DNA of 64,000 bases from the NCBI GenBank assembly GCA_963796055.1, contig CAWCKH010000004.1, positions 1,664,001 to 1,728,000 of the forward strand, written 5' to 3'. Shown piece by piece: positions 49,028 through 62,825 of this stretch. The notes beneath the pieces were generated by a model that searched no databases, was not told the origin of the DNA, and saw only the letters and a list, made by a program, of their open reading frames with translations. Position 1 is the stretch's first letter. Every line of letters starts with the position of its first letter. The DNA is from an uncultured delta proteobacterium (GTDB lineage: Bacteria; Myxococcota; Myxococcia; Myxococcales; Myxococcaceae). Made by a program: the position numbers and the translations under genes.

Positions 49028-49858
49028 TCAGAGGTCAGCCGCTCCCAGCCGGCGCATCGCCACCAGGACCGGGAGCACGAGCCAGAGGACGAGGCTCCCA
49101 CCCAGGGCGAGCGTTGCCCCCAGCGGTCCGTGGGTGAAGCGCAGCAGCGCCAGTGACGCTGCCCCGAATGCCGCGGTTCCCTCGAGGAGCAGCAGCTCGG
49201 CTGTGCGCAGCGCCGATGCCGGATTCACCAGGACGGAGACGATGAGCACCCGCGAGCCGAGCCCCGACGGCAGGAGGGTGCAGAGACCGAGGGCGATCAG
49301 GTCGAGAAAGATGACCGCCCCGAACCACACCACCAGTGCCACAGCGATCGCCCGGGTGCGCTTCTGGCCCGGCGCACCGGAGGCGATTGCGCCCGCCAGG
49401 CCGAGGAAGATTCCGGTGAGCACCGCCGCCCCGGCCACCAGGAGCAGATAGCTCCCCAGCCCGAGCTGGTCGGTCTTCCAGTAGATGAGCGCCCCCGCGG
49501 CCCCGAAACCGATTGCCTCGGCGCCGACCAGTGCCGCGCCCAGGCCGAGGAGCTTTCCGAGCAGGATGTCGCGGCGGGCGAGCGGCTGAGCGAAGAGCAG
49601 CTCCATGGAGCCCCGCTCCCCGGAGAGGGCCACCACCCCCAGGAGCAGGGCCATCAAGGGCACCACCAGCAGAACCAGCTGCAGCAGCGAGGCGGCGGTG
49701 CGGGCGAAGTCCTGGACCCCCACGCCTCCGGTGAGCACGTAGCCCGAGCCCGCCACGGCCAGCGCCAGCAGAGCGAAGACCGCCGCGAAGATCTGGATCG
49801 AACGCGCGCGGGCCGAGAGCAGCAGCTCCTGCCGGGCGACGAGAAGGAGCGCGTTCAT
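49028..49858 (-). CDS. nosY: ABC transporter permease for NosZ maturation
   Basis: ERGSMELLFAQPLARR.ILLGK; nos context. Confidence 0.85.
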   Translation of the reverse strand: MNALLLVARQELLLSARARSIQIFAAVFALLALAVAGSGYVLTGGVGVQDFARTAASLLQLVLLVVPLMALLLGVVALSGERGSMELLFAQPLARRDILLGKLLGLGAALVGAEAIGFGAAGALIYWKTDQLGLGSYLLLVAGAAVLTGIFLGLAGAIASGAPGQKRTRAIAVALVVWFGAVIFLDLIALGLCTLLPSGLGSRVLIVSVLVNPASALRTAELLLLEGTAAFGAASLALLRFTHGPLGATLALGGSLVLWLVLPVLVAMRRLGAADL

Positions 49859-50298
49859 CGTGCCGCCTCCCGTGGAGCCTCGCCGAACACCTCCCGGAAC
49901 TCCAACGGACGGCCGCCCGTCGCGGCGGGATCGGAATCCCGGGAACCTTGGTCCTGGTAGGCGAGGACGTGCGAGCCCATGGGCGTGGAGGCGGCCGGCT
50001 GGAGCACGTAGGAGGCCTCCCGGGCCGGCACCCAGGCTCCGCTGCGGCGATCGGCGACGTAGGCCACTGCCCCCCCGCGCGGCGGATGTTCGCGGAGGTA
50101 GCGGGCCAGACAGCCCACGTCATCGAAGAACAGCGGCTCCTCTCCGGCAGCGACCAGCTGCGCAGCAGTCCGCGGATCGGAGACCAGCATCCGGCAGCTG
50201 GCACAGGCATCGTTCCGGGTGTCGAGGGCAGCGGGAGGCGGCGGGCCTCGGGAGCAGGCCAGAGCGCCGACGACCACGAGGAGCGCCATCCTGCTCAC
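49855..50298 (-). CDS. nosL: Copper chaperone lipoprotein
   Basis: ALAC lipobox; CASCRML, FFDDVGC, TPMGS. Confidence 0.88.
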   Translation of the reverse strand: MSRMALLVVVGALACSRGPPPPAALDTRNDACASCRMLVSDPRTAAQLVAAGEEPLFFDDVGCLARYLREHPPRGGAVAYVADRRSGAWVPAREASYVLQPAASTPMGSHVLAYQDQGSRDSDPAATGGRPLEFREVFGEAPREAAR

Positions 50299-51191
50299 GA
50301 CGCGACCCCCAGCTCGCGGTAGAGGTCCTCGAGCCCACCCTCGGTCGACGAGAGCGCCCGCAGCGCGATACCCGCCCCGCGCACCGCCTCCACCACGTGG
50401 GCCCGCTCCTCCGGCGACCCTCGCACCGCGAGGAACCGGCCATCCCACTCCGGCGCGCCGGCGAGCGTGCTCACGCCGGCGAGGAGCTCGGGCGGGCAGC
50501 GGTCCAGCTCCAGCCGCAGCGTTCCGCCGAGGGCCAGGCGCCTCTCCAGCTCGGGGCGGCTGAGCTCGGCCGCGAGCCGTCCCTCCACCAGGATCACCAC
50601 CCGGTCGGCGAGCTGCTGCACATCCTCCAGCTGGTGCGAGGTGAAGAGCACCGCGCTCCCTCGCTCTCTGGCGGCGCCGATCAGCCGCCGCATCGCCTGC
50701 ATCCCCGGAGCATCGAGCGAGGCGGTGGGCTCGTCGAGTAGCAGCACCTCGGCCTCGGGCAGCGCCGCCACCGCCAGCCCGAGCCGCTGGAGCATCCCGC
50801 CGGAGTAGGTGCTCACCATCCGGCCCGAGGCGCCGTTGAGGGCGGCCAGCGTCAGCGCCTGCTGCCCCTTTCCTGGCGGCGCCGAGCGCAACTGCCCGTA
50901 GAAGTCCACCACCTCGGCGCCGGTGAGCGCGCCGGGGAAAGTCACCCGCTGCGGAAGGAAGGAGATGGTCCGGCGGGAGCCGGGGAGGTGCGCGGGCAGT
51001 CGGTCCTTTCCCAGCAGGACCTCGCCCGAGGTGGGATGGAGCAACCCGGCGGCAGCCTTGAGCGAGGTGGTCTTCCCCGAGCCGTTGGGCCCCACCACTG
51101 CCACCACCTCGCCGCGTTTCACCGAGAAGCTCAGGCCGCGCAGCGCGGCCTGCCTCCCGTACCACTTCGAGACTTCGCGGAAGATGATCAC
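50295..51191 (-). CDS. nosF: ABC transporter ATPase
   Basis: GPNGSGKT, YSGGM, LLLDEP, SH. Confidence 0.88.
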   Translation of the reverse strand: MIIFREVSKWYGRQAALRGLSFSVKRGEVVAVVGPNGSGKTTSLKAAAGLLHPTSGEVLLGKDRLPAHLPGSRRTISFLPQRVTFPGALTGAEVVDFYGQLRSAPPGKGQQALTLAALNGASGRMVSTYSGGMLQRLGLAVAALPEAEVLLLDEPTASLDAPGMQAMRRLIGAARERGSAVLFTSHQLEDVQQLADRVVILVEGRLAAELSRPELERRLALGGTLRLELDRCPPELLAGVSTLAGAPEWDGRFLAVRGSPEERAHVVEAVRGAGIALRALSSTEGGLEDLYRELGVAS

Positions 51192-52543
51192 CGCCGCCTC
51201 CCCCGCGAGAGCAGCACAGCACCGGCGGCCAGGAGTCCGAGGCTGGCCGTCATCCCGAGCAGGCCTCGCCGGTTCGCCTTGCCCCGGACCACCGGGAGGC
51301 GCGAGAGGTCCGGTAGACGGCCGAGGGGCCGGTGATCGACGGCCTTCACCGCCTCGAGGACCGGGAAGGTCCGTTCCGCCGCCGCGAGGGCCAGCGCCGA
51401 GGGGCTCCGCACCAGGAGGTCGGCGGCGAGGAGGTTTCCCCGGAGATGGTCGAAGAGGCTGGAGAGGACGTACTCCCCATCGCTCCGCCCGTCGCCGTCG
51501 AGGTCCGGCCAGTCGTTGTCCGACCAGAAGTTCCCATCGAAGGAAGTGTCGGTTCGCCGGCCCACCAGGGTGAGCGGGCTCAGATTGCCGAGGAAGGCGT
51601 TGTCCTCGAAGCTGTTGGCGGCGCAGGAGTCGAAGAGGACGATCGCCGCGTCCGAGTCGGCGATCAGGTTCCGGCGGAAGACGTTGCGCCGCGAGCCCTC
51701 CAGGAAGAGGCCGCGGGCGTTGTCCAGGAGCACGTTGTCCTCGGCGACGGAGTCCTCGCAGGACTGGCAGAGCACGCCCACCGAGGCGAAGCCGCGGTTG
51801 TGGAGGAACTGATTGCGCCGGAGGATGAGCCTCCGCGAATACATCAGCACTCCGCCGGCCGCGCTGTTCTCGAAGACATTCTCCTCGAACGCGTTGTCGT
51901 CCGAGTACATGAAGTGCAGCCCGTAACGGACGTTCCGGACCACGTTGCCTCGCATCCTTCCGCCCGAGGAGGACTGGATGTAGAGCCCGTCGCGCGACAA
52001 ATCGATGCTGTTCCCGGTGAGCTCGAAGCCCCGGGTGTTCCAGATGTGGATCCCCGAGCCTTTCTCGCCATCCTCCTTGCCCGGGATTCCGTGGATCTCG
52101 CAACGATCAATCCGCGCTCCGTCGGCGGCTCGGAGATAGATGCCGAACAGCGCGCCGCTGATCCGGCAGTCGCGGGCGGTGAAGCCGGACGCTGCGACGT
52201 GGATTCCCGAAGAGTCCCGGTCGATGGAGCCGCCCCCGCGCCCGTCGATGTCGAACCCCTCGACGGTCACTCCCGGGGCGCGCACCCGGACCACGCTGCC
52301 CTTCCCCGACCCCACCAGCCGCGGCCGCCCATGGCCGACCAGGGTCACGGGGCGGTCGAGCACCAGATCTCCGGGGTATTCGCCCGGGTCGACGTCGATG
52401 CGTTCACCTGGAGCCGCGGCATCCACGCGAGGCTGGAGAACGGAGGCTTCCCCGGGCGGAGGCCTCTCCTCGAGCGCCCCCGGCTCGATGGCCGACATCT
52501 CGGGGCCACCGGCAGCGAGCGCCATGAGGAGGAGCTGGATCAC
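51188..52543 (-). CDS. nosD: Periplasmic beta-helix maturation protein
   Basis: GIHIWN, RDGLY, RYGLHFMYS, GNFWSD..DLDGDG. Confidence 0.92.
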   Translation of the reverse strand: MIQLLLMALAAGGPEMSAIEPGALEERPPPGEASVLQPRVDAAAPGERIDVDPGEYPGDLVLDRPVTLVGHGRPRLVGSGKGSVVRVRAPGVTVEGFDIDGRGGGSIDRDSSGIHVAASGFTARDCRISGALFGIYLRAADGARIDRCEIHGIPGKEDGEKGSGIHIWNTRGFELTGNSIDLSRDGLYIQSSSGGRMRGNVVRNVRYGLHFMYSDDNAFEENVFENSAAGGVLMYSRRLILRRNQFLHNRGFASVGVLCQSCEDSVAEDNVLLDNARGLFLEGSRRNVFRRNLIADSDAAIVLFDSCAANSFEDNAFLGNLSPLTLVGRRTDTSFDGNFWSDNDWPDLDGDGRSDGEYVLSSLFDHLRGNLLAADLLVRSPSALALAAAERTFPVLEAVKAVDHRPLGRLPDLSRLPVVRGKANRRGLLGMTASLGLLAAGAVLLSRGRRR

Positions 52544-53193
52544 CGTGCAGGCTCGCCAGCCGGGACGCTCGCCTGCACTCGCCTGCGGCGAAGGGCGAAC
52601 AGCATCGCCGCGGCCAGCAGCAAGACCACGAGAAGCATGGCGTAGGTCCCGAGCTTGGGAAACGAGTAGACGTCGAAGTTGGCCAGCTTCGCGTGGCCGA
52701 AGAGCGGGGGCATGAACGGGGCCACGTGCACCGCGGCCTGAGGCGACAGGTCGTGCCCGTACCGGTACAGGGTGTAGCCGAACGACCAGAGCGAGAAGAG
52801 ACCGAAGTAGGTGAAGAGGACGCTCACGTCGAGCAGCTGCGCCACCCGGCCGTGCACCGCGGCCCGCAGAAAGAGCAGCGCCAGTACCCCCAGGGCGAAG
52901 GGCAGCCAGCGGAACTGCGTGAAGTCCTCCTCCGTCAGGTCCTTCATCCCGATGTAATGGTTCAGGACGTTGATCTCCCGGACATCCTGACCCCGGTTCC
53001 CGCCCTGGAGCTTGAAGCTATAGATGTCCAGCCGCAGCCCGTCGGGGTACTGCGGCGCAAACATCGTCAGGTTCCAGAGGGGAAGGAAGTTGGCCAGCAC
53101 CGCCACCAGCGCGGCAAGGGCGAGGAGTGCCCGTGGATTCCAGCCCAGCGGCCGGTCGAGCAGCTGCTGCTCCTTCTCCAGCACCGAAGCCAT
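52540..53193 (-). CDS. nosB: Clade II nos membrane protein (NosB-like)
   Basis: PLW...APQYPDGL..INVLNHYIGM..YGHDL.P.A..F.PP..G.KL.NF. Confidence 0.8.
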   Translation of the reverse strand: MASVLEKEQQLLDRPLGWNPRALLALAALVAVLANFLPLWNLTMFAPQYPDGLRLDIYSFKLQGGNRGQDVREINVLNHYIGMKDLTEEDFTQFRWLPFALGVLALLFLRAAVHGRVAQLLDVSVLFTYFGLFSLWSFGYTLYRYGHDLSPQAAVHVAPFMPPLFGHAKLANFDVYSFPKLGTYAMLLVVLLLAAAMLFALRRRRVQASVPAGEPAR

Positions 53194-53221
53194 GGAACAC
53201 CCCTCGCCGGCGGCGCGGCTG

Positions 53222-55084
53222 TCAGTTCACCGTCGGGCTCACGACCAGGTATCCTTGCATCTCCTGGTGCAGCGCCGAGCAGAAGTTGGTGCAGTAGTAA
53301 GGGAAGACGCCCTGCTTGTCGGCCTTGAAGGTGACCGTCTTGGTCTCCCCCGGATCGACCACCACGTTGATGTTGTAGTCGAGCAAGGCAAAGCCATGGA
53401 GCTCGTCGGTGGTCTGCTCGATGTTGGTGAGCGCCACGGTGACGAGGTCGCCCGGCTTCACGGTGAAGTTGGTGGGAGTGATGGTGGAGCGGGTGAGGAT
53501 CGCCTTCACCGTCACCTTGTTTCCTTGCCGGGTGACGCCGGTGTCCTTCAGGTCCCAGACCGCCAGCGGGTGCTTGTTCTCCTCCTTGGGGTAGACCTCG
53601 ATGGGGTGGAGCTTGCTGGCGCGGATGATCTGCGCGTAGTGCGGCTCGGGCTCGGTGAAGGCGTCGTAGAGCAGCTTCATCTTCTCGCCCGAGATGTCCA
53701 CCAGCTGCGAGGACTCGGGCTGGGAGGGACCGACCGAGAGGTGCCGCCCGTGGGAGAGCTTGTTCAGCCCCACCAGGAACCGGCCCTGTGGCTCGACCGT
53801 GTCGCCCTCGGCCGCGGCGAGGTGGCCGATGGAATAGGACATGGGCGTCTTGTCCACCACCTCCCAGGTGCCGAGCTTCCACTTGGCGATCGCGCTGTCG
53901 ATGAAGAGCGACGTGTAGGCGTACCCGTCGGGACCGAACTGGGTGTGGAGCGGTCCGAGGCCCACCGGCACCTCGGCATCCTTGATGCTCTCGTACTTGA
54001 GCACCGGGATTCCGTCCTCGTCACCGGTGAAGTCCTTGTTGCGGATGGCGGTCTGGATCTTCTCGAAGTTGAAGGCGGTGGTGATGCCGGCCAGCTTCCC
54101 CGAGCCGACGATGTACTTGCCGTCCGGAGAGACGTCGACCCCATGCGGCGACTTCCCGCAAGGCATGAAGAACACCAGGCCCGGAACCTCTCGCGGATCG
54201 AGGACCTTCACCCCGCCGATCATCTTCCCCTTTCCCTCGGCAGAGGCCTTCTCCGCCACCCGCCAGTCCACCGCGGCGATGTAGTCCCGATCCTTCTGCG
54301 AGGCGGTCACCTCCAGCTTCCCGGTGGCCCGCTCGGTGTTGTAGCTGGTGAAGAACATCCACCCGTTGGAGACCTTCTTCCCCGCGTCGCCCAGGTCGTA
54401 GTCGAAGGGCGGCATCACGATCTCCCAGCCCAGCGACATCTCACCGGTCTTGGGATCGATCTTGATGCCCGCCAGCACGCCCTTGTAATCGGTGGCGTAC
54501 TTCTCCACCGGGAGCGCCGTTCCCTTGGGGATGGGGATGGAGAAGCGGGTCCCCATCATCGCGTACTCGGTGTTGGGAGTGACGAAGCTGGAGGAGTGGT
54601 TCCCCGAGACGTTGGGAATGGGCCCCAGGATCTGCTTGGTCTTGAAGTCCCGGAGGTCGATGCGGGCGATCCGCCCGTTCATGTCGTTGATGAACAGCCA
54701 GCGGCCGTCGTAGGCGCCGTTGGTCTCCGAGAGCGCGGGGTGGTGCGCGTCGCCCCAGGTGAGGTTTCCCAGCATCTTCTTGGTGTCGTCGTCGAAGCCG
54801 TAGCCGGTCGCCGGATAGGGGGTGAACACCGGGATGGTGGAGAGGTGGCGCATCGAGGGGATGCCGTAGACGTAGACTTGGCCCGAGTGCCCGCCCGAGG
54901 CGAACATGTAGAACTCGTCCAGGTCTCCGGGCGGCACGTAGGTCTTCTGGGCAGCCACCGCGATGTCCGAGGTCACCGCCCCGCCCGGCCTCGCCGCCTG
55001 CTTCGGCGGGGTGGGCGCGCAGGTCACGACGAAGGCCGCCACCGCCAGCCCCGCGCCCAACAGAATCTTGGTCCTGGTCTTCAT
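53222..55084 (-). CDS. nosZ: Sec-dependent (clade II) nitrous oxide reductase
   Basis: SGGHSGQ, DAHH, GNH, PHG, GPLH, GHL, EPH (CuZ); HGF..CTNFCSALHQEM (CuA); no twin-arginine motif. Confidence 0.96.
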   Translation of the reverse strand: MKTRTKILLGAGLAVAAFVVTCAPTPPKQAARPGGAVTSDIAVAAQKTYVPPGDLDEFYMFASGGHSGQVYVYGIPSMRHLSTIPVFTPYPATGYGFDDDTKKMLGNLTWGDAHHPALSETNGAYDGRWLFINDMNGRIARIDLRDFKTKQILGPIPNVSGNHSSSFVTPNTEYAMMGTRFSIPIPKGTALPVEKYATDYKGVLAGIKIDPKTGEMSLGWEIVMPPFDYDLGDAGKKVSNGWMFFTSYNTERATGKLEVTASQKDRDYIAAVDWRVAEKASAEGKGKMIGGVKVLDPREVPGLVFFMPCGKSPHGVDVSPDGKYIVGSGKLAGITTAFNFEKIQTAIRNKDFTGDEDGIPVLKYESIKDAEVPVGLGPLHTQFGPDGYAYTSLFIDSAIAKWKLGTWEVVDKTPMSYSIGHLAAAEGDTVEPQGRFLVGLNKLSHGRHLSVGPSQPESSQLVDISGEKMKLLYDAFTEPEPHYAQIIRASKLHPIEVYPKEENKHPLAVWDLKDTGVTRQGNKVTVKAILTRSTITPTNFTVKPGDLVTVALTNIEQTTDELHGFALLDYNINVVVDPGETKTVTFKADKQGVFPYYCTNFCSALHQEMQGYLVVSPTVN

Positions 55085-55097
55085 GCTGCGCTCCCTT

Positions 55098-56327
55098 CTA
55101 GTGGCCCCCAGTGGAGGGGCCGTTCGCCGCACCCTTCTGCCGAAGGTGCTCGGCAAAGGCTTCGCGGAGCTTCTGGATCGCGACCTGCTTCTCGTCGGGG
55201 GTGAGGACGATCTGCCGCGAGAGCACCACCGACATGGTCCCGGTGGGCGCAGCGATGAAGTCGTCGATGGTGCGCCCGAAGCGGGCCTGCACGTCCTCGA
55301 CCGCGACCGACAGGTCGGGGCCGATCTGTGCCGGGCTCTTCACCCCGTAGACCGAGATCGAATGACAAACGAAGCACCCGGTCTTCACGAACCACGCGCC
55401 TGGGCCGGTGCGCATCCGGGCCTCGGCCTCGCGCTCTTCCTTGGTCTGCGGCTCGCTGTGCGGAGCACCGGAGAGGAACGAGGCAGGGAGCGACTCCCTC
55501 CGCCAGGAGAGCACGAGCATCGCCAGGGCCTGCGCCTCCTTGGTGGAGAAGTGGAAATTGGGCATCACCGTGTCCTGCACCAGCGTCCGCGGGTCCTTGA
55601 GGTGGGCCACGTGCCAGGCGAAGGCGGTCTGCTGCCCGGAGAGATGGCTGTAGTCGTACTGCTCTGCAGGCTTGTCCCCCACGTAGGTGAGCTCCGGCCC
55701 GATGGTGCCACCGCGCCCGTTGATCACGTGGCAGGCGCGGCAGCCCTTCTCGTTCACCAGGGCCTTGGCCAGGTTGATCGCCTCGGCGCCTTTCGTCTCG
55801 CGGTCGTAGCGGTGGCAGACGTTGCACTGCATCTGCATCAGCGAGGAGGACGGCAGGGCCAGGGAGTACGACTCACCGAGGGCCTTCCCCAGCACCGGCT
55901 CCTCCCAGTGCTCGACCGGTCCGTGCGCTTCCTGCGGGTCGACCGCGTACCCCTGTCCTCCGTGGCAGGAGGTACAGCCGAACCGGGAGGTGGGGTGGCT
56001 CCGGAGAATCTCCCGGGGGTGGCTCTTGAACGGTTCCTCGGCAGTCTCGAACCCCGACCAGCTCACCGCCTGATGGCAGGTGATGCAGCGGTCGGCCCGC
56101 TGCAGCTCGGGAACCCAGATCTGCTGCGTCCCGGACGGAATCGCCGCAGCCTTCGGGGCCCCGAACTTCTCGGTGACCCGGCGCCGGAACTCGCCCTGGT
56201 ACCAGCGCCAGTCGTGCCGGCGGTCGCTCCAGGCGAAGAGGAGGGTGGAGACGATCAGCAGCACCCCCACCCCGGCGAGCACGGTGCGGTCCCGCTTGGC
56301 GAAGGACGCGGTGCGGAGCGGTTCCAT
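55098..56327 (-). CDS. Membrane-anchored pentaheme cytochrome c
   Basis: CITCH, CTSCH, CNVCH, CRACH, CFVCH; N-terminal TM. Confidence 0.88.
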   Translation of the reverse strand: MEPLRTASFAKRDRTVLAGVGVLLIVSTLLFAWSDRRHDWRWYQGEFRRRVTEKFGAPKAAAIPSGTQQIWVPELQRADRCITCHQAVSWSGFETAEEPFKSHPREILRSHPTSRFGCTSCHGGQGYAVDPQEAHGPVEHWEEPVLGKALGESYSLALPSSSLMQMQCNVCHRYDRETKGAEAINLAKALVNEKGCRACHVINGRGGTIGPELTYVGDKPAEQYDYSHLSGQQTAFAWHVAHLKDPRTLVQDTVMPNFHFSTKEAQALAMLVLSWRRESLPASFLSGAPHSEPQTKEEREAEARMRTGPGAWFVKTGCFVCHSISVYGVKSPAQIGPDLSVAVEDVQARFGRTIDDFIAAPTGTMSVVLSRQIVLTPDEKQVAIQKLREAFAEHLRQKGAANGPSTGGH

Positions 56328-56329
56328 CG

Positions 56330-57658
56330 TCAGATCCTCGAGGGCACCTGGGGCCAGCTCTCCCAGGGCCAGTAGTAGTGCCAGTAGGGGCCGCGGCAGA
56401 ACGTGCCGACCAGCGTCAGGAGCAGCACCCCGAGCACGAAGAGCAGGAACACCGCGTTCTGCAGGCGGCGGTTCCGCGGGAACCACTGCCCGGCTTCGTT
56501 GGCGGGGCTCCGGTCCAGCCACGGCCAGAGCGTGAGCAGCACCAGGAGCGCGCCGGGAAGCAGCACCCCGCCGAGGAAGGCCCCGTTCACGGTGAAGCTG
56601 CCAATGTGGAAGGTGGTGTCGGTGACGATTTCTTGTAACCAGAGGAAGTACCAGGGGGCCTTGGCCGGATTGGGCGTGACCAGCGGGTTGGCCGGCTCCT
56701 CCAGCGGGGAGCGGACGAAGACCGCGAGCATGCTCAGCGCGGCGATGGTCCCCAGCACCACGATGCTGATCCGCCGCACCACATCTGGCACCGAGTTGAC
56801 CAGCTCATCCGGCGCCTGCAGCGTGGTCGCCCGGACCGTGGGGCCCGTCCCGCGGGCGATGCCCAGGAGCGAGTAGGTCTTGGTCGGCGACGGGGGCTGC
56901 TCCACCTTGGTCGCCGCCAGCCCCAGCTGGTCGGCGCGGGCCAGCCCTCCGTCCTTGCGCACCCGCCACATGTGGTAGGCGAACAGCACGCCCAGCAGCC
57001 CCGGCAGGAAGACGATGTGCAGCACGTAGAAGCGCAGCAGCGTCGGCTGATCGATGTTCCGCCCGCCGATGAGCAGCTCGCGCACCGTGGGGCCGATGGC
57101 CGGGATGGAGGCGGCGATGTTGGTCCCCACCGTCACCGCCCAGAAGGCCAGCTGATCCCAGGGCAGGAGGTAGCCGGTGAAGGAGAGGAAGAGGGTGACC
57201 ACCAGCATCGCCACCCCGAGCACCCAGTTCCACTCGCGGCGCTGCGCCCGGCCGTGCGCGTTCTTGTACGCCCCGGTGAGGAACACCCGGACCAGGTGGA
57301 GGAACACCACCGCCACCATGAGGTGGGCGGAGAGCCGGTGCACTGCGCGGATCCAGCTCCCGAAGGTCACCACGTACTCGATGTCCTTCACCGAGAGGTA
57401 GGCCCGCTCCACCGAGGGGATGTGGAGGAACATCAGCGGGAGGCCGGAGAGGATCAGGAGGAGGAACAGCGCCGCCGACACCGTGCCCAGCCAGAAGGAG
57501 TAGCTCCAGGCCAGCGAGCGCCGGTAGCTCCGGGCCGGGAACCAGTGCAGGGCGAAGTTGGAGGCCACTGCATCGCCGGCCTCCCGGTCCGAGCGTGGGC
57601 GAACGCTCCAGAGCCTTCGGGGTCGGACGCCGGGAGCGCTGTCGAGGGGCTTGGTCAT
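56330..57658 (-). CDS. Cytochrome b (b6-like fused to subunit IV)
   Basis: RAVH..FLH, GYLLPWDQ, LH-x14-YH, NPAKAPWYF. Confidence 0.9.
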   Translation of the reverse strand: MTKPLDSAPGVRPRRLWSVRPRSDREAGDAVASNFALHWFPARSYRRSLAWSYSFWLGTVSAALFLLLILSGLPLMFLHIPSVERAYLSVKDIEYVVTFGSWIRAVHRLSAHLMVAVVFLHLVRVFLTGAYKNAHGRAQRREWNWVLGVAMLVVTLFLSFTGYLLPWDQLAFWAVTVGTNIAASIPAIGPTVRELLIGGRNIDQPTLLRFYVLHIVFLPGLLGVLFAYHMWRVRKDGGLARADQLGLAATKVEQPPSPTKTYSLLGIARGTGPTVRATTLQAPDELVNSVPDVVRRISIVVLGTIAALSMLAVFVRSPLEEPANPLVTPNPAKAPWYFLWLQEIVTDTTFHIGSFTVNGAFLGGVLLPGALLVLLTLWPWLDRSPANEAGQWFPRNRRLQNAVFLLFVLGVLLLTLVGTFCRGPYWHYYWPWESWPQVPSRI

Positions 57659-57666
57659 GACGGGTC

Positions 57667-58179
57667 TCAGGCGACGGTGAGCCGGAAGTCGCGCTCCACC
57701 GGTTGGGCGAGGTCCACCACCAGCTGCCCGTCGTCGGAGGCGACCGAGAGCTCGTACCAGGCCAGCGGCCGGGGGGCGGGTCCGGCGACGTTGGTCCCGT
57801 CCCCGGCGTACTTCGAGCCGTGGCAGGGGCACAGGAAGCGGTGGGTGAGACGGGTCGACTTTCCGCCCACCTCCTTCGTCTCGGGATTGGAGAGTGCCTC
57901 GGCCCTCACCGTGCAGCCGAGATGGGTGCAGACCGCGGATATGGCGTGAAAGATGTGCCCCTCGCGAAAGACGAAGAGGCGCTCGTCCGGGAGGTACTTC
58001 AGCCCTTCGGGGTACTCGGAGGGCAGCCCGAGCTTCACCGTGGTGGGCGAGTCGTAGGACACGTTGGGGACCAGCGAGCGGAGCGCCGCTCCGGCCTGTG
58101 CCCCCAGCGCCACCAGTCCGGTGCCAATTCCCACCGTCTTGAGGAGCTCGCGCCGGTTGGGCTGCTTCTTCTCGCTCAT
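57667..58179 (-). CDS. Rieske [2Fe-2S] protein
   Basis: Tat NRRELLK; CTHLGC, CPCHGSKY, GPAPRPL. Confidence 0.92.
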   Translation of the reverse strand: MSEKKQPNRRELLKTVGIGTGLVALGAQAGAALRSLVPNVSYDSPTTVKLGLPSEYPEGLKYLPDERLFVFREGHIFHAISAVCTHLGCTVRAEALSNPETKEVGGKSTRLTHRFLCPCHGSKYAGDGTNVAGPAPRPLAWYELSVASDDGQLVVDLAQPVERDFRLTVA

Positions 58180-60101
58180 GACACCTCCTCGAAGCGCTCG
58201 GTGATGGTGAATCGCTCCATGGTCATTGCGTCGGTCGGGCAGCGGATGGCGCACAGTCCGCACCGGATGCAGGCCGTGTCGTCCTTGAGCAGGGCGGTCA
58301 GCGGCAGGTCCGAGTCCTGCGACGCCACCCGCGCCAGCGCGGCCCGCTCGTCCTCGGGGAGGGCGAGCTGCTCGAGGGGGACGAAGGCCAGGCACTTCTC
58401 CGGGCAAACGTCCACGCAGCGGCCGCAGAGGACGCAGGCCTCGGGGTCGTAGATGGTCTGCACGTGACAGACCAGGCAGCGCGCCGCCTGTATCCGGGCC
58501 TCGGCGTCGCCGTAGCCAATCTCCACCTCGGCGATGCCGGTGCGGCGGCCCACGTCGAGCGTCGGGGGAGCCTCACGGTCGAGCAGCTCGAAGCCGGCGA
58601 CCATCCGGTACTGGGCCGTGGGGATCTTCTCCACCTCCATCCAGGCGCGCCGCCGCGCGCGGCCGTGCGCCAGGTATTCGTGGATGGAACGGGCAGCACG
58701 CTTGCCGTTGGCCACCGCCTCGATGAGGTTCCGGGGGCCGAAGGCCACGTCGCCTCCGGCGTAGACGCCCGGGGCGGAGGTGGCGAGGGTCTCGGGGTCC
58801 ACGCGGATCGCTCCCGAGGGAGCGAGCGCCACTCCGTCGCCGGGATGAAGGAAGGAGAGATCCGCCGTCTGCCCCACCGCGAGCACGCAGGCGTCCGCGG
58901 CGAGCGACTCGACGTCGGCGTCGTCGTAGGTAGGGGCGAAGCGGCCGCTCGCGTCGAAGACGGCCAGCACGCGACGGAGCTCCACCGACTGGAGCCGTTT
59001 CTCGCCGAGGAAGCGGAGCGGGCCGCGCCGGGTGACGAAGCGGATGCCCTCGCGCTTGGCCTCCTCGAACTCCTCCTTGCCCTGGGTGGTCCGGAGGACC
59101 GGCATCTCCTCGAAGTTCTCCAGGGAGACGACGGTCACCTCCATCGAGCCGCTCCGGAGCGCGGCTCGCGCCACGTCCAGCGATTCCTGGAGCCGCGCCT
59201 CGCCGGTCTCGGTCTCGGGCTGCGGTGCCTCCTGTCCGGCGCGCAGCGCGGTCCGGGCAGCGTCGAAGGCGACGAACCCTCCGCCGACGACCACCACCCG
59301 CTGGCCAAGGTTCATCCGGTAGCCGCGGTTGACGTTGAGCAGGTAGTCGACTGCCTTCACCACCCCGTCCAGCTCCACCCCGGGGACGTTCAGGTCCCGC
59401 CCGCGCGAGACGCCCACCGAGACGAAGACCGCCTGGAAGTCATCGGCCTTGAGCTGGGACAGCCCGAAGGACGGAGTCAGGGCGGTGTTGAGCCGCAGCT
59501 CCACCCCGAGCTCGAGGATCTTGTTGATCTCCGACTGGATCAACGCCCGGGGCAGCCGGTACTCGGGAATGCCGAAGCGCATCATCCCCCCGGCCTCGGC
59601 CGCGGCGTCGAACACGGTGACGCGGTAGCCCAGGAGGGCCAGGTCGTGTGCCGCCGACAGCCCCGCCGGGCCTGCACCGACCACCGCAATCTTTGCGCCG
59701 CGGACCGGCGCAGGCCCGGGGACCACCGGGAGGTGGAAGGCGAAGCGGTTCCCTTCCGAGACGAGGGTCTGCCGCAGGGAGTCCTGGGTGTCGGGCCGGC
59801 TCGACTCCACGCCGTAACGCTCGGTGAGATGCCGCTTCAGCGCGCGGATGGCGATCGGCGCATCGATGGCTCCGCGGCGGCAGGCGTCCTCGCACGGAGC
59901 GGCGCAGACCCGCCCGCACACCGAGGCGAACGGGTTGGGAGCCCGCGCGACGAGGAAGGCCTCCCGGTCGCGGCCCTCGCCGATGAGCTGCACGTACCGG
60001 CCGGCGTCGGTCGCAACCGGACAGCCGGCCTGACACTTCACCTGTGCCTTCCAGTCCTCCAGGTTGGGAAGGCGCGCGGCGATCGGCAGCGCGGAGCTCA
60101 T
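58176..60101 (-). CDS. FAD/NAD(P)H oxidoreductase (GltD/NfnB/DsrL-like) with C-terminal 2x[4Fe-4S] ferredoxin domain
   Basis: CQAGCP..CGRVCAAPCE..C, GAGPAG, GIPEYRL, GGGFVA, GGD; CVLCGRCVDVCP, CIRCGLCAIRCP. Confidence 0.88.
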   Translation of the reverse strand: MSSALPIAARLPNLEDWKAQVKCQAGCPVATDAGRYVQLIGEGRDREAFLVARAPNPFASVCGRVCAAPCEDACRRGAIDAPIAIRALKRHLTERYGVESSRPDTQDSLRQTLVSEGNRFAFHLPVVPGPAPVRGAKIAVVGAGPAGLSAAHDLALLGYRVTVFDAAAEAGGMMRFGIPEYRLPRALIQSEINKILELGVELRLNTALTPSFGLSQLKADDFQAVFVSVGVSRGRDLNVPGVELDGVVKAVDYLLNVNRGYRMNLGQRVVVVGGGFVAFDAARTALRAGQEAPQPETETGEARLQESLDVARAALRSGSMEVTVVSLENFEEMPVLRTTQGKEEFEEAKREGIRFVTRRGPLRFLGEKRLQSVELRRVLAVFDASGRFAPTYDDADVESLAADACVLAVGQTADLSFLHPGDGVALAPSGAIRVDPETLATSAPGVYAGGDVAFGPRNLIEAVANGKRAARSIHEYLAHGRARRRAWMEVEKIPTAQYRMVAGFELLDREAPPTLDVGRRTGIAEVEIGYGDAEARIQAARCLVCHVQTIYDPEACVLCGRCVDVCPEKCLAFVPLEQLALPEDERAALARVASQDSDLPLTALLKDDTACIRCGLCAIRCPTDAMTMERFTITERFEEVS

Positions 60102-60814
60102 CGGACACTACCCCTGTGCACTCCGGATGCCACCGGACCGACTCGCTCGAATCGCGCGGCGAGCACGTTGTTCTCGAGATGGACGTGCTCGAGCGTGTCC
60201 CGGTCCATCGCCTCGAGCTCGGACATGAGCGCCCGGTAGGTAGCGCAGGCCCAAAGCGGCGGGATGAAGCGATCACTGAGTGTGCGGAGCGTTCGCAGGG
60301 CCTCGCCCACCTGGAGGTGCTCGGCCCGCATCCGGTCGAGCTCGGCGCGGATGCGTTGGCGGGACCGGGCTCTGCCGATCAGAAGGGGAAAGAGCACCGC
60401 CTCCTCGTGTTGCAGATGGGGCTCGAGGAGCCCCCGCAGGACGCGGAGGACGGACTGGATCTCCTCCAGCGACGGCTGGCGCTCGGCGTGCGCCTCGACC
60501 ACCCTCCCGGCCAGGAGCTCGACGAGGGGAAGGGTCTTGCGCAGGTAGACGTGGTGCTGATCGACGATGCGGGCGACGAGCTGGAGCGTGGTGAGCGACC
60601 GCGGGTCGAGCCCGGGCCTTCCGGGAGGCTCTCCGGCGACCGCCGCCTCCAGCTCGGCCACCAGCGCCGCCACGTCGATGCCCCGCTCGGCGCAGGCCTC
60701 GGCGAGGGGCACCGGGCCCCGGCAGCAGAAGTCGATGTCCCGCTCGACGAGAATGCCCGCGCAGCGGGGATGCTCCAGGACGATGTGTGCGACAGGCTGG
60801 TCCGGGGCGATCAC
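60098..60814 (-). CDS. ric: Di-iron RIC protein (YtfE/DnrN/ScdA family)
   Basis: DIDFCCRG, HH.YLR, HLQHEE.VLFP, EH, HVHLENNVL. Confidence 0.87.
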   Translation of the reverse strand: MIAPDQPVAHIVLEHPRCAGILVERDIDFCCRGPVPLAEACAERGIDVAALVAELEAAVAGEPPGRPGLDPRSLTTLQLVARIVDQHHVYLRKTLPLVELLAGRVVEAHAERQPSLEEIQSVLRVLRGLLEPHLQHEEAVLFPLLIGRARSRQRIRAELDRMRAEHLQVGEALRTLRTLSDRFIPPLWACATYRALMSELEAMDRDTLEHVHLENNVLAARFERVGPVASGVHRGSVR

Positions 60815-60829
60815 GTGGACTTCGCGTGA

Positions 60830-60846
60830 AGCATCCGGCGTGCCCA
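60830..60846 (-). promoter_or_regulatory. Sigma54 (-24/-12) promoter for the ric-nos operon
   Basis: Minus strand TGGGCACGCCGGATGCT = GG-N10-GC with GGCACG/TGC. Confidence 0.6.
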
Positions 60847-60853
60847 AACGCCG

Positions 60854-60869
60854 TGGCACGATCGATGAA
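60854..60869 (+). promoter_or_regulatory. Possible divergent sigma54 promoter for ywiC
   Basis: TGGCACG-ATCG-ATGAA; perfect -24 element, non-canonical -12 (GA). Confidence 0.35.
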
Positions 60870-60882
60870 ACCGGAACGACCG

Positions 60883-61683
60883 ATGGATGTCCCCGTTCAG
60901 GCGCTCTCGCCTCCAGCGCGCTCGCTCGCCCCGCGCGAGCACGGCGCCTACGGCCAGCTCGCGCTGCCGATGGCGGCAGCCCTCGCCAGCGGGCGGCCGG
61001 GCCCGGTCGCGCTCCTGCTCGCGGCGAGCGCCTGGGCGTTCTTCCTTGCCCACGAGCCTGCGCTGGTGCTCCTCGGCCGGCGCGGTGAGCGGGCGCGGAC
61101 CGAGCAGCGCCGCCGTGCGGTGAGCCGGCTTCTCGCCCTCGGGCTCGCCGGGGTCGCGCTCGGCGGCGCCGGGTTGATGCTCGTCTCCCCGTCGGTGCGC
61201 TGGGCGGCCCTGGCCAGTGCCGTCCTCGCCCTCGGCTTCGGCGCAGTGGTGGCGCTCGGAGGCGAGCGCTCGGCACCGGGTGAGATGCTGGCTTCCATCG
61301 CGCTCGCCGGGGCCGCCTTCCCGGTCGCCCTCGCCGCGGGCCTGCCCGAGGACGACGCCGCAAGGGCCTGGCTGGTCTGGTCGATCGGGCTTGCCGCCCT
61401 CGTTCTCCCGGTGCGGAGCATCGGCGCGCGCCGGCGAGGAAGCGCATCCCTCGTGTCGCGGCTGCTGCCGGCAGCAGTGGCGCTGTGCCTCGGCTTCGCA
61501 CTCCGGGGACGCCCGCTCACCCGGATGGACCTCGCCGCGCTCGCGGCGCTCGTCGTGACCAGCGCCTGGCTCGGGCTGACCCGGCCCGACCCGCGACACC
61601 TTCGCCGCGTCGGCTGGAGCATCGTGGGAGCCACGCTGGTGGCCGGGGTCGTGCTGGTCCTCGCCGTCCGGGTCGGCGCATGA
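60883..61683 (+). CDS. YwiC-like membrane protein
   Basis: [12 protein letters not shown]-terminal motif, multi-TM, RRVGW near the C-terminus. Confidence 0.8.
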
Positions 61684-61748
61684 GGCGGACCTACTTCCTC
61701 GGGTGGGGCCCGCCCACTGCTGGCATTCGTTCCACGACTAGTTCCATA

Positions 61749-62825
<1,077 letters not shown>

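Follow-up and report, generated by a model that had tools for sequence, protein, structure and literature searches.

For Wolinella, a NosGH/C1/C2 route was reportedly set out by Hein in 2017; it involves NosG and NosH, whereas the nos cluster studied here has neither. Comparative figures of clade II nos clusters show Fe-S, Rieske, cytochrome b (cy-b) and cytochrome c (cy-c) genes (He et al., 2024, PMC11096178, Fig. 5 legend and text), and such clusters and Wolinella have in common with the present locus a Sec-type NosZ, a nosB gene directly downstream, the lack of nosR, and dedicated cytochrome and iron-sulfur genes upstream. That legend and text name the extra gene merely an iron-sulfur protein and discuss neither an NAD(P)H flavoprotein nor an NAD(P) link. 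An NAD(P) oxidoreductase subunit is, on the other hand, part of the Kuenenia stuttgartiensis complexes Kuste4569-4574 and Kustd1480-1485 (PMC12954380; Kartal 2013 and de Almeida 2016, cited there), whose mechanism is itself only a proposal. The searchable literature, which did not cover key reviews, yielded no discussion of an NAD(P)-linked Rieske module in nos clusters; within it, the NAD(P) tie of a Rieske/cytochrome b module is so far discussed only for anammox bacteria.

Operon architecture

In the window, i.e. the whole 64,000-nucleotide stretch of DNA that was analysed, the minus strand carries an operon in the order RIC, 641-amino-acid flavoprotein, Rieske protein, cytochrome b, five-haem cytochrome c, Sec-type (clade II) nosZ and nosBDFLY. 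The leading gene (60098..60820, with an approximate GTG start near 60814-60820) encodes a RIC/ScdA/YtfE-type di-iron iron-sulfur repair protein with Pfam ScdA_N and Hemerythrin domains, which scores slightly below the TIGR03652 cut-off (199.6 versus 204.7 bits). It is translationally coupled upstream of the flavoprotein gene, its stop and the following start overlapping in ATGA as read from the sequence. The flavoprotein gene (58176..60101), of the NfnB/GltD-type NAD(P)H/FAD/Fe-S kind by Pfam, opens the conserved block and overlaps by another 4-bp ATGA with the gene for a Rieske [2Fe-2S] protein (57667..58179; Pfam Rieske). After an 8-bp gap follows a cytochrome b of 442 residues (56330..57658), in which b6-like and subunit-IV-like parts are fused in one chain (Pfam Cytochrome_B and Cytochrom_B_C), and after a further 2 bp a membrane-anchored cytochrome c (55098..56327; Pfam Cytochrom_C) with one N-terminal transmembrane segment and five CxxCH motifs (81, 118, 168, 196, 318). 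A 13-bp gap, in which AAGGGAG precedes the ATG, leads to nosZ (53222..55084). The tight coupling upstream of nosZ claimed by the original prediction is thus found in overlaps or gaps of at most 13 bp, and the clade II assignment of NosZ is borne out by 915 bits against a cut-off of 625 for TIGR04246, by a score under the cut-off for the Tat type (TIGR04244, 437 bits) and by an N-terminus devoid of a twin arginine; the CuA motif reads CTNFCSALHQEM.

Downstream lie a gene for a NosB-like membrane protein (52540..53193), a name given for its place behind clade II nosZ in line with PMC11096178, with four transmembrane-like segments and no family match in Pfam or NCBIfam, and the copper-site maturation and ABC gene set nosD (51188-52543; Pfam NosD/Beta_helix), nosF (50295 to about 51190; ABC_tran), nosL (49855-50289; NosL) and nosY (49028-49858; ABC2_membrane_2), all on the minus strand. 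The five genes from the flavoprotein to nosZ were described correctly beforehand, while the RIC gene one position earlier and the nosBDFLY genes, which extend the operon to 49028, had been missed. The reported lack of nosR, nosG and nosH is true of the cluster (49028-60820), and the whole genome has one Fer4_5 (NapH/NosH/NosR-type) match, on a different contig. Candidate regulators of the nos operon come from a divergent plus-strand unit (60865..62825): its first gene (60865-61683; Pfam YwiC, 52.9 bits) encodes a YwiC-like membrane protein, its second (about 61758-62825; Sigma54_activat, 232 bits) a sigma-54 activator. The host is a soil myxobacterium of the Myxococcaceae, which probably acquired the nos cluster horizontally.

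Conservation of the gene order

Operon mates that are transferred together are expected to keep a fixed order, with or without binding of their proteins. Among the best 80 of 393 relatives, the order recurred for the Rieske gene in 71 of 72, cytochrome b in 67 of 67, cytochrome c in 64 of 64 and nosZ in 59 of 59 loci, each figure being based on the loci whose downstream sequence was long enough, and 80 of 80 were colinear; the NosB-like gene was kept in 49 of 50 loci and the nosD/F/L/Y order was conserved. This arrangement is far beyond chance. A similar order, as had been suspected, occurs in Anaeromyxobacter (Anaeromyxobacter sp. PSR-1, L080). In a quick tree of 52 rows, 35 nos-linked flavoproteins fall on one side of a branch (SH-aLRT 99). 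Among 401 Myxococcota genomes, a flavoprotein of at least 70% identity occurs in 22, 21 of which encode a NosZ of at least 77% identity; the orthologue was found in none of the 64 genomes with only a 31-50% NosZ.

Beyond this group, the flavoprotein-Rieske-cytochrome b order was kept in all 47 more distant relatives examined, 17 of which serve other partners, namely molybdoenzymes, a haem-porin with cupredoxin, or others; the flavoprotein therefore goes with the Rieske/cytochrome b module and not with NosZ as such. Myxococcota paralogues (40-50% identity) kept Rieske, cytochrome b and multihaem cytochrome c genes in 10 of 10 cases in the absence of nosZ, with molybdopterin oxidoreductases downstream in all five loci checked. 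In a second phylum, 87 of 401 genomes possess a full-length relative, and the three-gene order was present in the 30 best loci out of 30. Extension of eleven loci, ten of this set plus the paralogue of an Acidobacteriota MAG (G402), showed four to be nos clusters with a NosZ of 64-68% identity and seven to have a haem-porin and a cupredoxin upstream instead. The co-occurrence of the flavoprotein with Rieske/cytochrome b genes described in the original prediction is confirmed. These results support that the flavoprotein is evolutionarily locked to the Rieske/cytochrome b genes, also in modules that serve a terminal enzyme other than NosZ.

The flavoprotein

Consistent with the first description of a flavoprotein with an extra 2x[4Fe-4S] domain and no signal peptide, the protein shows a Fer4_20 domain (residues 21-95), Pyr_redox_2 (137-466) and a C-terminal 2x[4Fe-4S] domain (550-630), and the sequence scan found neither a transmembrane-like segment nor a signal peptide, as suits a cytoplasmic protein. 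It scores under all NCBIfam cut-offs (best NF009410, 395 versus 516 bits). Its best PDB matches are NfnABC (9bov/9bp5) and FwdF (5t5i), and an AF2 model (pLDDT 84, pTM 0.86) retrieved NfnABC, StnABC and NfnI as best Foldseek matches. With NfnB, NfnABC subunit A, StnABC, GltD and the N-terminal module of DPD (9n5u, 9bov, 8oh5, 5jca, 4ylf, 6s6s, 1h7x; Foldseek E 2e-43 to 1e-27, 24-30% identity) it shares the Fer4_20 two-cluster domain and the FAD and NAD(P)H Rossmann domains; in contrast to this group, it adds the C-terminal dicluster domain and three more invariant cysteines (542, 545, 570), has a low-confidence insert of about 30 residues (292-318) in the nucleotide domain, and its partner genes encode membrane proteins and not NfnA, NfnC or GltB. 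The NAD(P)H oxidoreductase DsrL, which occurs in sulfur oxidisers and sulfur reducers, has the same three-part architecture (N-terminal clusters, FAD/NAD(P)H domains, C-terminal ferredoxin domain); its partner is soluble DsrAB, whereas the nos locus has no dsr genes.

In an alignment of 41 sequences the Cys and Gly motifs are invariant, as are Arg509 and Arg520, and the N-terminal two-cluster domain has just six invariant cysteines. Glu328 is likewise invariant and stands at the end of strand two in the nucleotide fold (VSLE328), where NADPH enzymes have an Arg; the nicotinamide partner is therefore probably NAD+.

Rieske protein and cytochrome b

The predicted Tat-dependent Rieske protein, cytochrome b and five-haem cytochrome c agree with the RRELL N-terminus, the Pfam domains and the five CxxCH motifs. 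The Rieske boxes read CTHLGC and CPCHGSKY, box II with its Ser/Tyr pair being conserved as CPCHGS.Y in 69 of the 71 nos-linked orthologue matches that show this box. The cytochrome b has seven transmembrane-like segments, b6 matches in the PDB and NCBIfam ExtP/ExtQ matches under the cut-off; it carries four canonical histidines (107, 121, 214, 229), an extra His38, whose N-terminal segment does not align with b6, and Arg232 and Arg234, and it lacks the CxGG cysteine for haem cN. In an alignment of 39 sequences His38, Arg232 and Arg234 are invariant. The four haem-ligand histidines, the Rieske boxes and the Qo-site WY motif are common to canonical b6f/bc complexes, including the housekeeping complex of this genome (G000 contig C1, about 315469-317900). 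The latter, however, has PEWY in cytochrome b and CACHNGKF in the Rieske protein, where the nos-linked pair has APWY and CPCHGSKY; the high-potential-type signature is thus a feature of the nos-linked Rieske protein, not of the housekeeping one.

Judging by the Ser/Tyr pair, the centre would be of high potential; its substrate would be menaquinol, which we take to be the host quinone. Loss of the Ser lowers the potential of Rieske proteins by 130 mV and that of the Tyr by 65 mV, and Kuste4569, which has both residues, lies at +303 mV (as given in PMC12954380). Two residues underlie this assignment, and Kustd1480, reported in the same source to have a higher potential despite the missing Tyr, counts against it.

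Comparison with the Kuenenia complexes

The invoked relation to the Kuenenia complexes is upheld: the best PDB matches of the Rieske protein, 9rk4 and 9rk3 (E 3.6e-19 and 1.6e-18), are the Kuste4569 and Kustd1480 Rieske proteins, i.e. both Kuenenia Rieskes are its two best solved relatives, and the flavoprotein matches the templates named for Kuste4570 (NfnABC 9bp5/9bov, FwdF 5t5i; PMC12954380). By sequence, the Rieske protein and the flavoprotein are kin to the Kuenenia complexes with an NAD(P) oxidoreductase. There, the operon likewise combines an NAD(P)/FAD/multi-Fe-S protein with a Rieske protein, a b6-type cytochrome b and a multihaem cytochrome c; a Ser stands beside the Rieske cluster in both systems, joined by a Tyr in the nos-linked protein, and an extra conserved His precedes helix A of cytochrome b. 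The Kuenenia AF3 model places an extra haem on cytochrome b His43, near cytochrome b Arg247 and flavoprotein Arg511 (PMC12954380), residues that parallel His38, Arg232/Arg234 and Arg509/Arg520 by similar numbering only. The cluster nearest FAD is reported in the same source to lack a fourth Cys, and the six cysteines of the nos-linked flavoprotein are alike in this.

Differences concern the cytochromes and the partners. In Kuenenia b6 and subunit IV are not one chain, cytochrome c has six or eight haems instead of five, the partner is HAO-like, where the nos module has NosZ and no HAO-like partner, and the hosts are anammox bacteria, whereas the nos-linked module resides in non-anammox soil bacteria. 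The Kuenenia models contain haem cN (PMC12954380), and the subfamily M cytochromes b of planctomycetes are reported to have a CxGG motif (PMC5600118); as the nos-linked cytochrome b lacks CxGG, its low-potential path would differ from that of Kuenenia. Co-migration of subunits is cited for Kuenenia in PMC12954380; the nos-linked complex is a predicted one.

Proposed electron flow and alternatives

We consider it likely, from gene linkage and homology, that the flavoprotein is a subunit of the Rieske/cytochrome b complex, presumably a cytoplasmic fourth one docked on the N-side of cytochrome b. The private complex would, by prediction, pass electrons from menaquinol on to NosZ, with the five-haem cytochrome c as predicted path from the Rieske protein. 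As a high-potential Rieske centre would work on menaquinol, the b haems would be of very low potential, and the second electron of each quinol would pass via these haems, the Fe-S cluster chain and FAD to NAD(P)+, probably NAD+. This four-subunit proposal as a whole, including the direction of flow, is tentative, at slightly less than even confidence.

The same complex might run in reverse, with NAD(P)H as the donor via FAD and the Fe-S chain to the N-side haem or quinone site. It might then be a self-contained NAD(P)H:cytochrome c (N2O) oxidoreductase, either circumventing complex I or replenishing the Q cycle from the cytoplasm. We regard this as rather unlikely, although linkage and homology fit it equally well and electron flow would be downhill all along. 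The carriers are mostly heterotroph-type genomes, and since they include heterotrophs that make NADH readily, it is not obvious why they would need to reduce NAD+ with quinol; furthermore, Glu328 would point to NAD(H), the catabolic carrier, and such cytochromes b are described as membrane anchors of cytoplasmic oxidoreductase subunits, i.e. dehydrogenase-like (Dibrova et al., PMC5600118). Reversal, however, leaves the high-potential-type Rieske signature, distinct from the housekeeping one, unexplained, and NuoD-family genes for NADH oxidation are already found in the genome. Moreover, the partner systems (NosZ, type II molybdoenzymes with an EB_dh subunit, haem-porin plus cupredoxin) are periplasmic and of high potential, as bifurcation needs, which is not decisive.

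It is improbable that the flavoprotein is no subunit at all but is expressed together with the module as a soluble NAD(P)H:Fe-S oxidoreductase, which might maintain Fe-S or copper centres by reduction or repair (NosR-like or RIC-linked) or reduce a soluble acceptor. The translational coupling to the RIC gene and the NO-stress genes (NnrS, ScdA_N fusion, Rrf2) upstream in 3 of 12 other loci examined fit such a role; among the relatives' loci surveyed, however, RIC lies directly upstream only in the Myxococcaceae branch (L005, L006, L085, L086), and the flavoprotein adjoins Rieske/cytochrome b in 17 of 17 examined modules without NosZ and is therefore not a NosZ-specific helper. The C-terminal dicluster domain with Cys 542, 545 and 570 also resembles a wire to a fixed partner. 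That the gene simply encodes a glutamate synthase small subunit or a dihydropyrimidine dehydrogenase-type protein and lies beside the nos operon by chance is hardly credible and was rejected, as the Pfam domains are those of GltD/DPD but the scores lie under every curated NCBIfam cut-off for GltD, AegA, YgfK and similar, no gene for a large subunit lies next to it, the order recurs in more than one phylum, and stop and start codons overlap at both ends of the gene.

If the four-subunit complex with electron flow towards NAD(P)+ is true, N2O respiration is likely tied to cellular NAD(P)(H), and, should the NADH be re-oxidised by complex I, each electron pair that reaches N2O would be accompanied by about twice the proton movement of a plain Q cycle.

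The nos cluster and its gene order

The cluster occupies the minus strand and, in transcription order, opens with the gene for a RIC/ScdA di-iron protein (60098 to ~60820), followed by the genes for the 641-aa flavoprotein (58176-60101), a Rieske protein (57667-58179), a 442-aa cytochrome b (56330-57658), a five-haem cytochrome c (55098-56327) and nosZ (53222-55084). A gene for a NosB-like membrane protein of 217 aa with four transmembrane-like segments (52540-53193) comes directly after nosZ, and nosD, nosF, nosL and nosY continue on the same strand down to 49028. The junction sequences show ATGA overlaps between RIC and flavoprotein and between flavoprotein and Rieske, and gaps of 8, 2, 13 and 28 bp at the Rieske/cytochrome b, cytochrome b/cytochrome c, cytochrome c/nosZ and nosZ/nosB borders, respectively. 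A malic enzyme gene on the opposite strand lies 3' of nosY, and a YwiC-like gene and a sigma-54 activator are located divergently upstream of RIC. Many spurious open reading frames arise in this region of the window owing to its G+C content of 65-74%.

The original prediction of a bifurcating N2O-respiratory complex described the genes correctly wherever its description could be checked, and its range, 53222 to 60101, leaves out RIC at one end and the maturation genes at the other. Its statement that nosR is missing is borne out for the cluster, as a Pfam search finds no NosR/X-type domain between 49028 and 60820. NosZ scores 915 bits against the curated Sec-type model TIGR04246 and 437 bits against the Tat-type model TIGR04244, each with a cut-off of 625 bits, and its N-terminus, MKTRTKILLGAGLAVAAFVVTC, is without RR. 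Because of the Sec-type score and the missing twin arginine, the enzyme is assigned to clade II, as had been proposed, with nosB as its direct downstream neighbour.

The flavoprotein gene accompanies the Rieske/cytochrome b genes

With one genome scanned per species, the best 80 of 393 loci with a flavoprotein relative, which at 67-95% identity are the closest relatives, are all colinear with the cluster (80/80). Counting only loci with sufficient 3' sequence, the flavoprotein gene in this set is followed by genes for the Rieske protein in 71/72, the five-haem cytochrome in 64/64 and NosB in 49/50 cases; the co-occurrence with cytochrome b on which the original prediction depended is seen in 67/67, and the neighbourhood with nosZ in 59/59. 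The hosts are Acidobacteriota, Anaeromyxobacteraceae, Myxococcaceae, Binatia and an Acidithiobacillales MAG, and the similar gene order suspected in Anaeromyxobacter is present in Anaeromyxobacter sp. PSR-1 (locus L080).

Among 401 Myxococcota genomes, 22 possess a flavoprotein orthologue of at least 70% identity, and a second tier of flavoproteins is found at 40-50%. All ten second-tier loci that were extended (L114-L123, from genomes G053, G376, G216, G347, G369, G093, G024, G038, G047 and G282) combine flavoprotein, Rieske protein, cytochrome b and a multihaem cytochrome, with nosZ absent. A periplasmic-type molybdopterin oxidoreductase is encoded downstream in all five of these loci that were viewed, accompanied by a Fer4_11 subunit in L115 and L118 and by an EB_dh-type subunit in L118. 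At some loci of this tier, cytochrome and molybdoenzyme seemingly form one reading frame of ~1,700 aa, as judged by crude ORF calling.

A search of 401 genomes around the Acidithiobacillales MAG, in a second phylum, identified a full-length flavoprotein relative (E <= 1e-80) in 87/401 genomes, and the order flavoprotein-Rieske-cytochrome b in 30/30 of the best loci. Eleven loci were extended, ten of this set and a paralogue from the Acidobacteriota MAG G402. Complete nos clusters with NosZ identities of 64-68% are present in 4/11, where the flavoprotein shows 56-62% identity. The remaining 7/11 (48-51% identity; L192-L198 from G520, G708, G484, G760, G553, G695 and G402) encode a ~500-aa protein without a family and then a ~190-aa cupredoxin-like protein ahead of flavoprotein, Rieske protein, b6 protein, subunit IV and a ~690-aa multihaem cytochrome; a PAS-LuxR regulator is often encoded further upstream. 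As their alignment shows, the ~500-aa proteins possess a signal peptide immediately followed by a single CxxCH, and they end in Phe, a build which we take to be that of a Cyc2-type haem-porin. A clade III lactonase-type NosZ was considered for these proteins and rejected, as NCBIfam and Pfam matches are absent in 7/7.

Cumulatively, the flavoprotein gene adjoins the Rieske/cytochrome b genes in 17/17 examined modules without NosZ, which argues for a role of the flavoprotein in the Rieske/cytochrome b complex and against a NosZ-specific helper. In a quick maximum-likelihood tree of 52 flavoproteins, which includes 30 of the 80 top loci and is rooted at the midpoint only, a branch with an SH-aLRT of 99 has the 35 nos-linked proteins to one side, and another, also with 99, has the seven porin-linked ones to one side.

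A flavoprotein related to bifurcating enzymes

According to Pfam, the flavoprotein consists of an N-terminal Fer4_20 domain (residues 21-95; 53 bits), FAD and NAD(P)H folds (Pyr_redox_2, 113.5 bits; both scores pass the cut-off) with the dinucleotide motifs GAGPAG at 142 and GGGFVA at 273, and a C-terminal 2x[4Fe-4S] ferredoxin domain (550-630). As it lacks a hydrophobic segment, it is cytoplasmic. The best NCBIfam model, NF009410, is matched with 395 bits against a cut-off of 516, and as all curated cut-offs are missed the protein is no named GltD, AegA or YgfK. GltD proper was rejected by the scores for TIGR01317 (174 bits against 447.7) and TIGR01318 (194 against 483) and, likewise, by the lack of a GltB-like ORF near the gene. 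This architecture is common in the ESM Atlas, with clusters of 51 to 1,492 members from Acidobacteriota, Pseudomonadota and Actinomycetota.

An AlphaFold2 model built from an alignment of 41 sequences (pLDDT 84, pTM 0.86; residues 292-318 not confident) has as its nearest solved structures subunit A of the bifurcating enzymes NfnABC and StnABC and the large subunit of NfnI, with a Foldseek probability of 1.00 for NfnABC and NfnI. Invariant among the 41 relatives are six Cys in the N-terminal domain, the full set of eight in the C-terminal diclusters and Cys at 542, 545 and 570, besides Arg509 and Arg520. The CLVCH at 542 is no haem site, given the lack of conservation of its His and the cytoplasmic location of the protein. 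An invariant Glu ends the strand after the second dinucleotide fold (VSLE328), which presumably points to NAD(H) rather than NADP(H) as the preferred nucleotide. A single in-frame stop was observed in the flavoprotein genes of some relatives (L069:9001-10551 and matches in G402, G557 and G093), being TGA in three search rows, with one stop in L069; these may reflect assembly errors, pseudogenes or recoding.

Comparison with the anammox Rieske/cytochrome b complexes

The nos-linked Rieske protein carries the boxes CTHLGC and CPCHGSKY. Compared with 177,635 PDB sequences, its top two matches are 9rk4 (E 3.6e-19) and 9rk3 (1.6e-18), with all b6f Rieske proteins ranking below; in PMC12954380, these entries are Kuste4569 and Kustd1480, the Rieske proteins of the Kuenenia complexes with an NAD(P) oxidoreductase, with potentials of +303 and +335 mV. 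As in Kuenenia, the gene for an NAD(P)/FAD/multi-Fe-S protein lies inside a Rieske/cytochrome b operon, here with an ATGA overlap and conserved order.

In the 39 aligned cytochrome b sequences, His107, His121, His214 and His229 are invariant, accounting for two b haems, as are His38 before helix A and Arg232/Arg234 after helix D. In contrast to the anammox type, the nos-linked protein is a single chain of b6-like and subunit-IV-like parts (two separate proteins in the 48-51% paralogue type), the Qo motif is APWY rather than PEWY, and the site for haem cN is missing. The CxGG cysteine, named as a feature of haem cN in PMC5600118, is absent from its FWLGT sequence, where Trp56 stands at the Cys position.

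The flavoprotein matches 9bov, identical in sequence to 9bp5, and its residues 549-631 match 5t5i; its comparison with Kuenenia is indirect, through such shared templates. The work on Kuenenia reports that the oxidoreductase lacks the fourth Cys at the cluster nearest the FAD, and in the present family the N-terminal domain has six, not eight, invariant Cys. It further describes an AlphaFold3 model with an additional b haem on the dimer axis, ligated by cytochrome b His43 and near cytochrome b Arg247 and oxidoreductase Arg511 (PMC12954380). Going by their similar numbering, His38, Arg232/Arg234 and Arg509/Arg520 may be the counterparts of these residues, a correspondence offered as a lead.

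The genome also encodes a housekeeping Rieske/cytochrome b pair (contig C1, ~315469-317900; L155 and L156), with 34% identity in cytochrome b, a canonical PEWY motif and CACHNGKF as Rieske box II. Ser and Tyr of box II are present in 69/71 of the nos-linked orthologue matches that show the box, and the Rieske proteins of the non-nos paralogues keep Ser and end in Tyr or Phe. As mutations of Ser and Tyr lower the potential by ~130 and 65 mV, respectively (cited in PMC12954380), we infer from the residues of this box a high-potential type of centre for the nos-linked Rieske protein but not for its housekeeping counterpart.

Probable transfer of the block, and its upstream region

A NosZ match is present in 85 of the 401 Myxococcota genomes. 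It reaches at least 77% identity in 21, all of which also have the flavoprotein orthologue; the remaining one of the 22 orthologue-bearing genomes, G306, is fragmented, with the flavoprotein gene at a contig edge. Conversely, the orthologue occurs in 0/64 of the genomes with only a 31-50% NosZ, and no cytochrome c, cytochrome b or Rieske gene was found within 1.5 kb of such a nosZ at the ten loci viewed. One genome in these tallies, G195, which also provides L147 of the ten loci, is flagged unpublished. Of eight other genomes of the same genus, one has the cluster, two have the other, 31-50% NosZ type and five have no NosZ; positions 49028-60820 were compared with the same-genus genomes G090 and G158. 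The usual NosZ of Myxococcaceae, carried by most NosZ-bearing members, shows 45-50% identity to that of the window and is without the module. Beyond the Myxococcaceae branch, the nearest relatives of the block are found in Acidobacteriota, among which Anaeromyxobacteraceae, Binatia and the Acidithiobacillales MAG are nested in a quick, midpoint-rooted flavoprotein tree. The patchiness within the genus and this nesting suggest that the block moves between phyla as a unit, and the Myxococcaceae genome studied here probably acquired it horizontally.

The genes 5' of the flavoprotein gene vary between loci and include NnrS, Rrf2, TonB receptors, LuxR and others; the flavoprotein gene is thus the first of the conserved block. 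Only the Myxococcaceae relatives L005, L006, L085 and L086 have a RIC/ScdA/YtfE-type gene as the direct neighbour; other lineages encode NnrS, a ScdA_N-NnrS fusion or an Rrf2 regulator nearby. These neighbours suggest nitric-oxide-responsive control or protection of the Fe-S chain. The gap of ~50 bp between RIC and YwiC (60831-60868) harbours the GG-N10-GC element GGGCACGCCGGATGC and a short inverted repeat, GTGCC...GGCAC, next to the YwiC-like gene and the sigma-54 activator (60865-62825, plus strand), the latter nearly without an N-terminal sensor domain. The sigma-54 promoter pattern TGGCAC-N5-TTGC, with up to two mismatches, has 64 matches in the window against 51.7 +/- 7 expected, a number reached by 4/100 shuffles, and as this count is not above chance the site at 60831-60845 upstream of RIC is no evidence by itself.

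Electron flow and its proposed direction

A route from a dedicated quinol:cytochrome c oxidoreductase to the membrane-anchored five-haem cytochrome and on to periplasmic NosZ is well supported, as is its replacement of the NosGH route, NosGH being absent from the cluster. The flavoprotein would occupy the cytoplasmic side of this complex, its C-terminal clusters linking cytochrome b on its N-side with the N-terminal clusters, the FAD and the nicotinamide site. Complex predictions of cytochrome b (442 aa, 39-sequence alignment) with flavoprotein residues 470-641 (41-sequence alignment), run without controls on a pair smaller than the Kuenenia model geometry of a cytochrome b dimer with the whole flavoprotein, gave 0.10 and 0.22 against a mark of 0.32, values that speak neither for nor against binding.

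The carrier bacteria presumably use menaquinone, and menaquinol has a potential of about -74 mV. Oxidation of menaquinol by a Rieske centre near +300 mV would leave the b haems at a potential low enough to reduce NAD+, an argument made likewise for Kuenenia in PMC12954380. The electrons of NADH could return to the quinone pool via complex I, NuoD-family genes being present in the genome, which would give ~8 instead of 4 protons per electron pair to N2O. Since the N2O/N2 couple lies near +1.35 V, the overall reaction is strongly downhill. Extended to a widespread four-subunit Rieske/cytochrome b class, the reading is that the excess driving force of very high-potential acceptors, N2O in this case, pushes the second menaquinol electron up to NAD+ and that re-oxidation of NADH by complex I about doubles the protons per electron pair; we put this forward tentatively and consider it somewhat unlikely.

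The main rival has the same complex run from NAD(P)H inwards, a direction that the sequence data fit equally. That the flavoprotein is instead a soluble maintenance enzyme, as its translational coupling to the RIC gene hints, is the weaker alternative and is disfavoured by the pattern of linkage with Rieske and cytochrome b.

A distinct variant and its significance

Anammox bacteria are known to have Rieske/cytochrome b complexes of this kind, with a subunit that is an NAD(P) oxidoreductase, and the corresponding gene neighbourhoods have been noted more widely; the general form of this gene association is in print (Dibrova et al., PMC5600118). With its fused cytochrome b, missing haem cN site, five haems and NosZ as partner, the nos-linked form is a distinct and widespread variant. 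In the searchable full text, no discussion of an NAD(P)H flavoprotein in a nos cluster was found, although Sanford 2012, Onley 2018 and the Hein and Simon reviews may draw or name the gene, and the searchable literature yielded no biochemical or genetic work on the nos-linked form.

Anammox bacteria, in which the same design is debated, are hard to grow and not genetically manipulable. With cultured carriers of the nos-linked version, e.g. Anaeromyxobacter, purification, assays and possibly deletions would be feasible, and the long-debated anammox mechanism of quinol-to-NAD(P)H electron transfer would, if the proposal is true, become testable in cultivable bacteria.

To our knowledge, NosZ is the only biological sink of N2O, and carriers of clade II NosZ are a target of N2O mitigation efforts. 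We know the electron route to clade II NosZ in detail only for Wolinella NosGH. A different supply line, which includes a flavoprotein that binds NAD(P), serves a large NosZ subclade spanning Acidobacteriota, Anaeromyxobacteraceae, some Myxococcaceae, Binatia and a Pseudomonadota lineage. Should this flavoprotein be a working subunit, respiration of N2O would be coupled directly to the NAD(H) pool, which would change the expected energy yield and redox balance, and a Rieske/cytochrome b class that pushes electrons to NAD+ would, if true, account for the high growth yields that clade II N2O reducers are reported to have.
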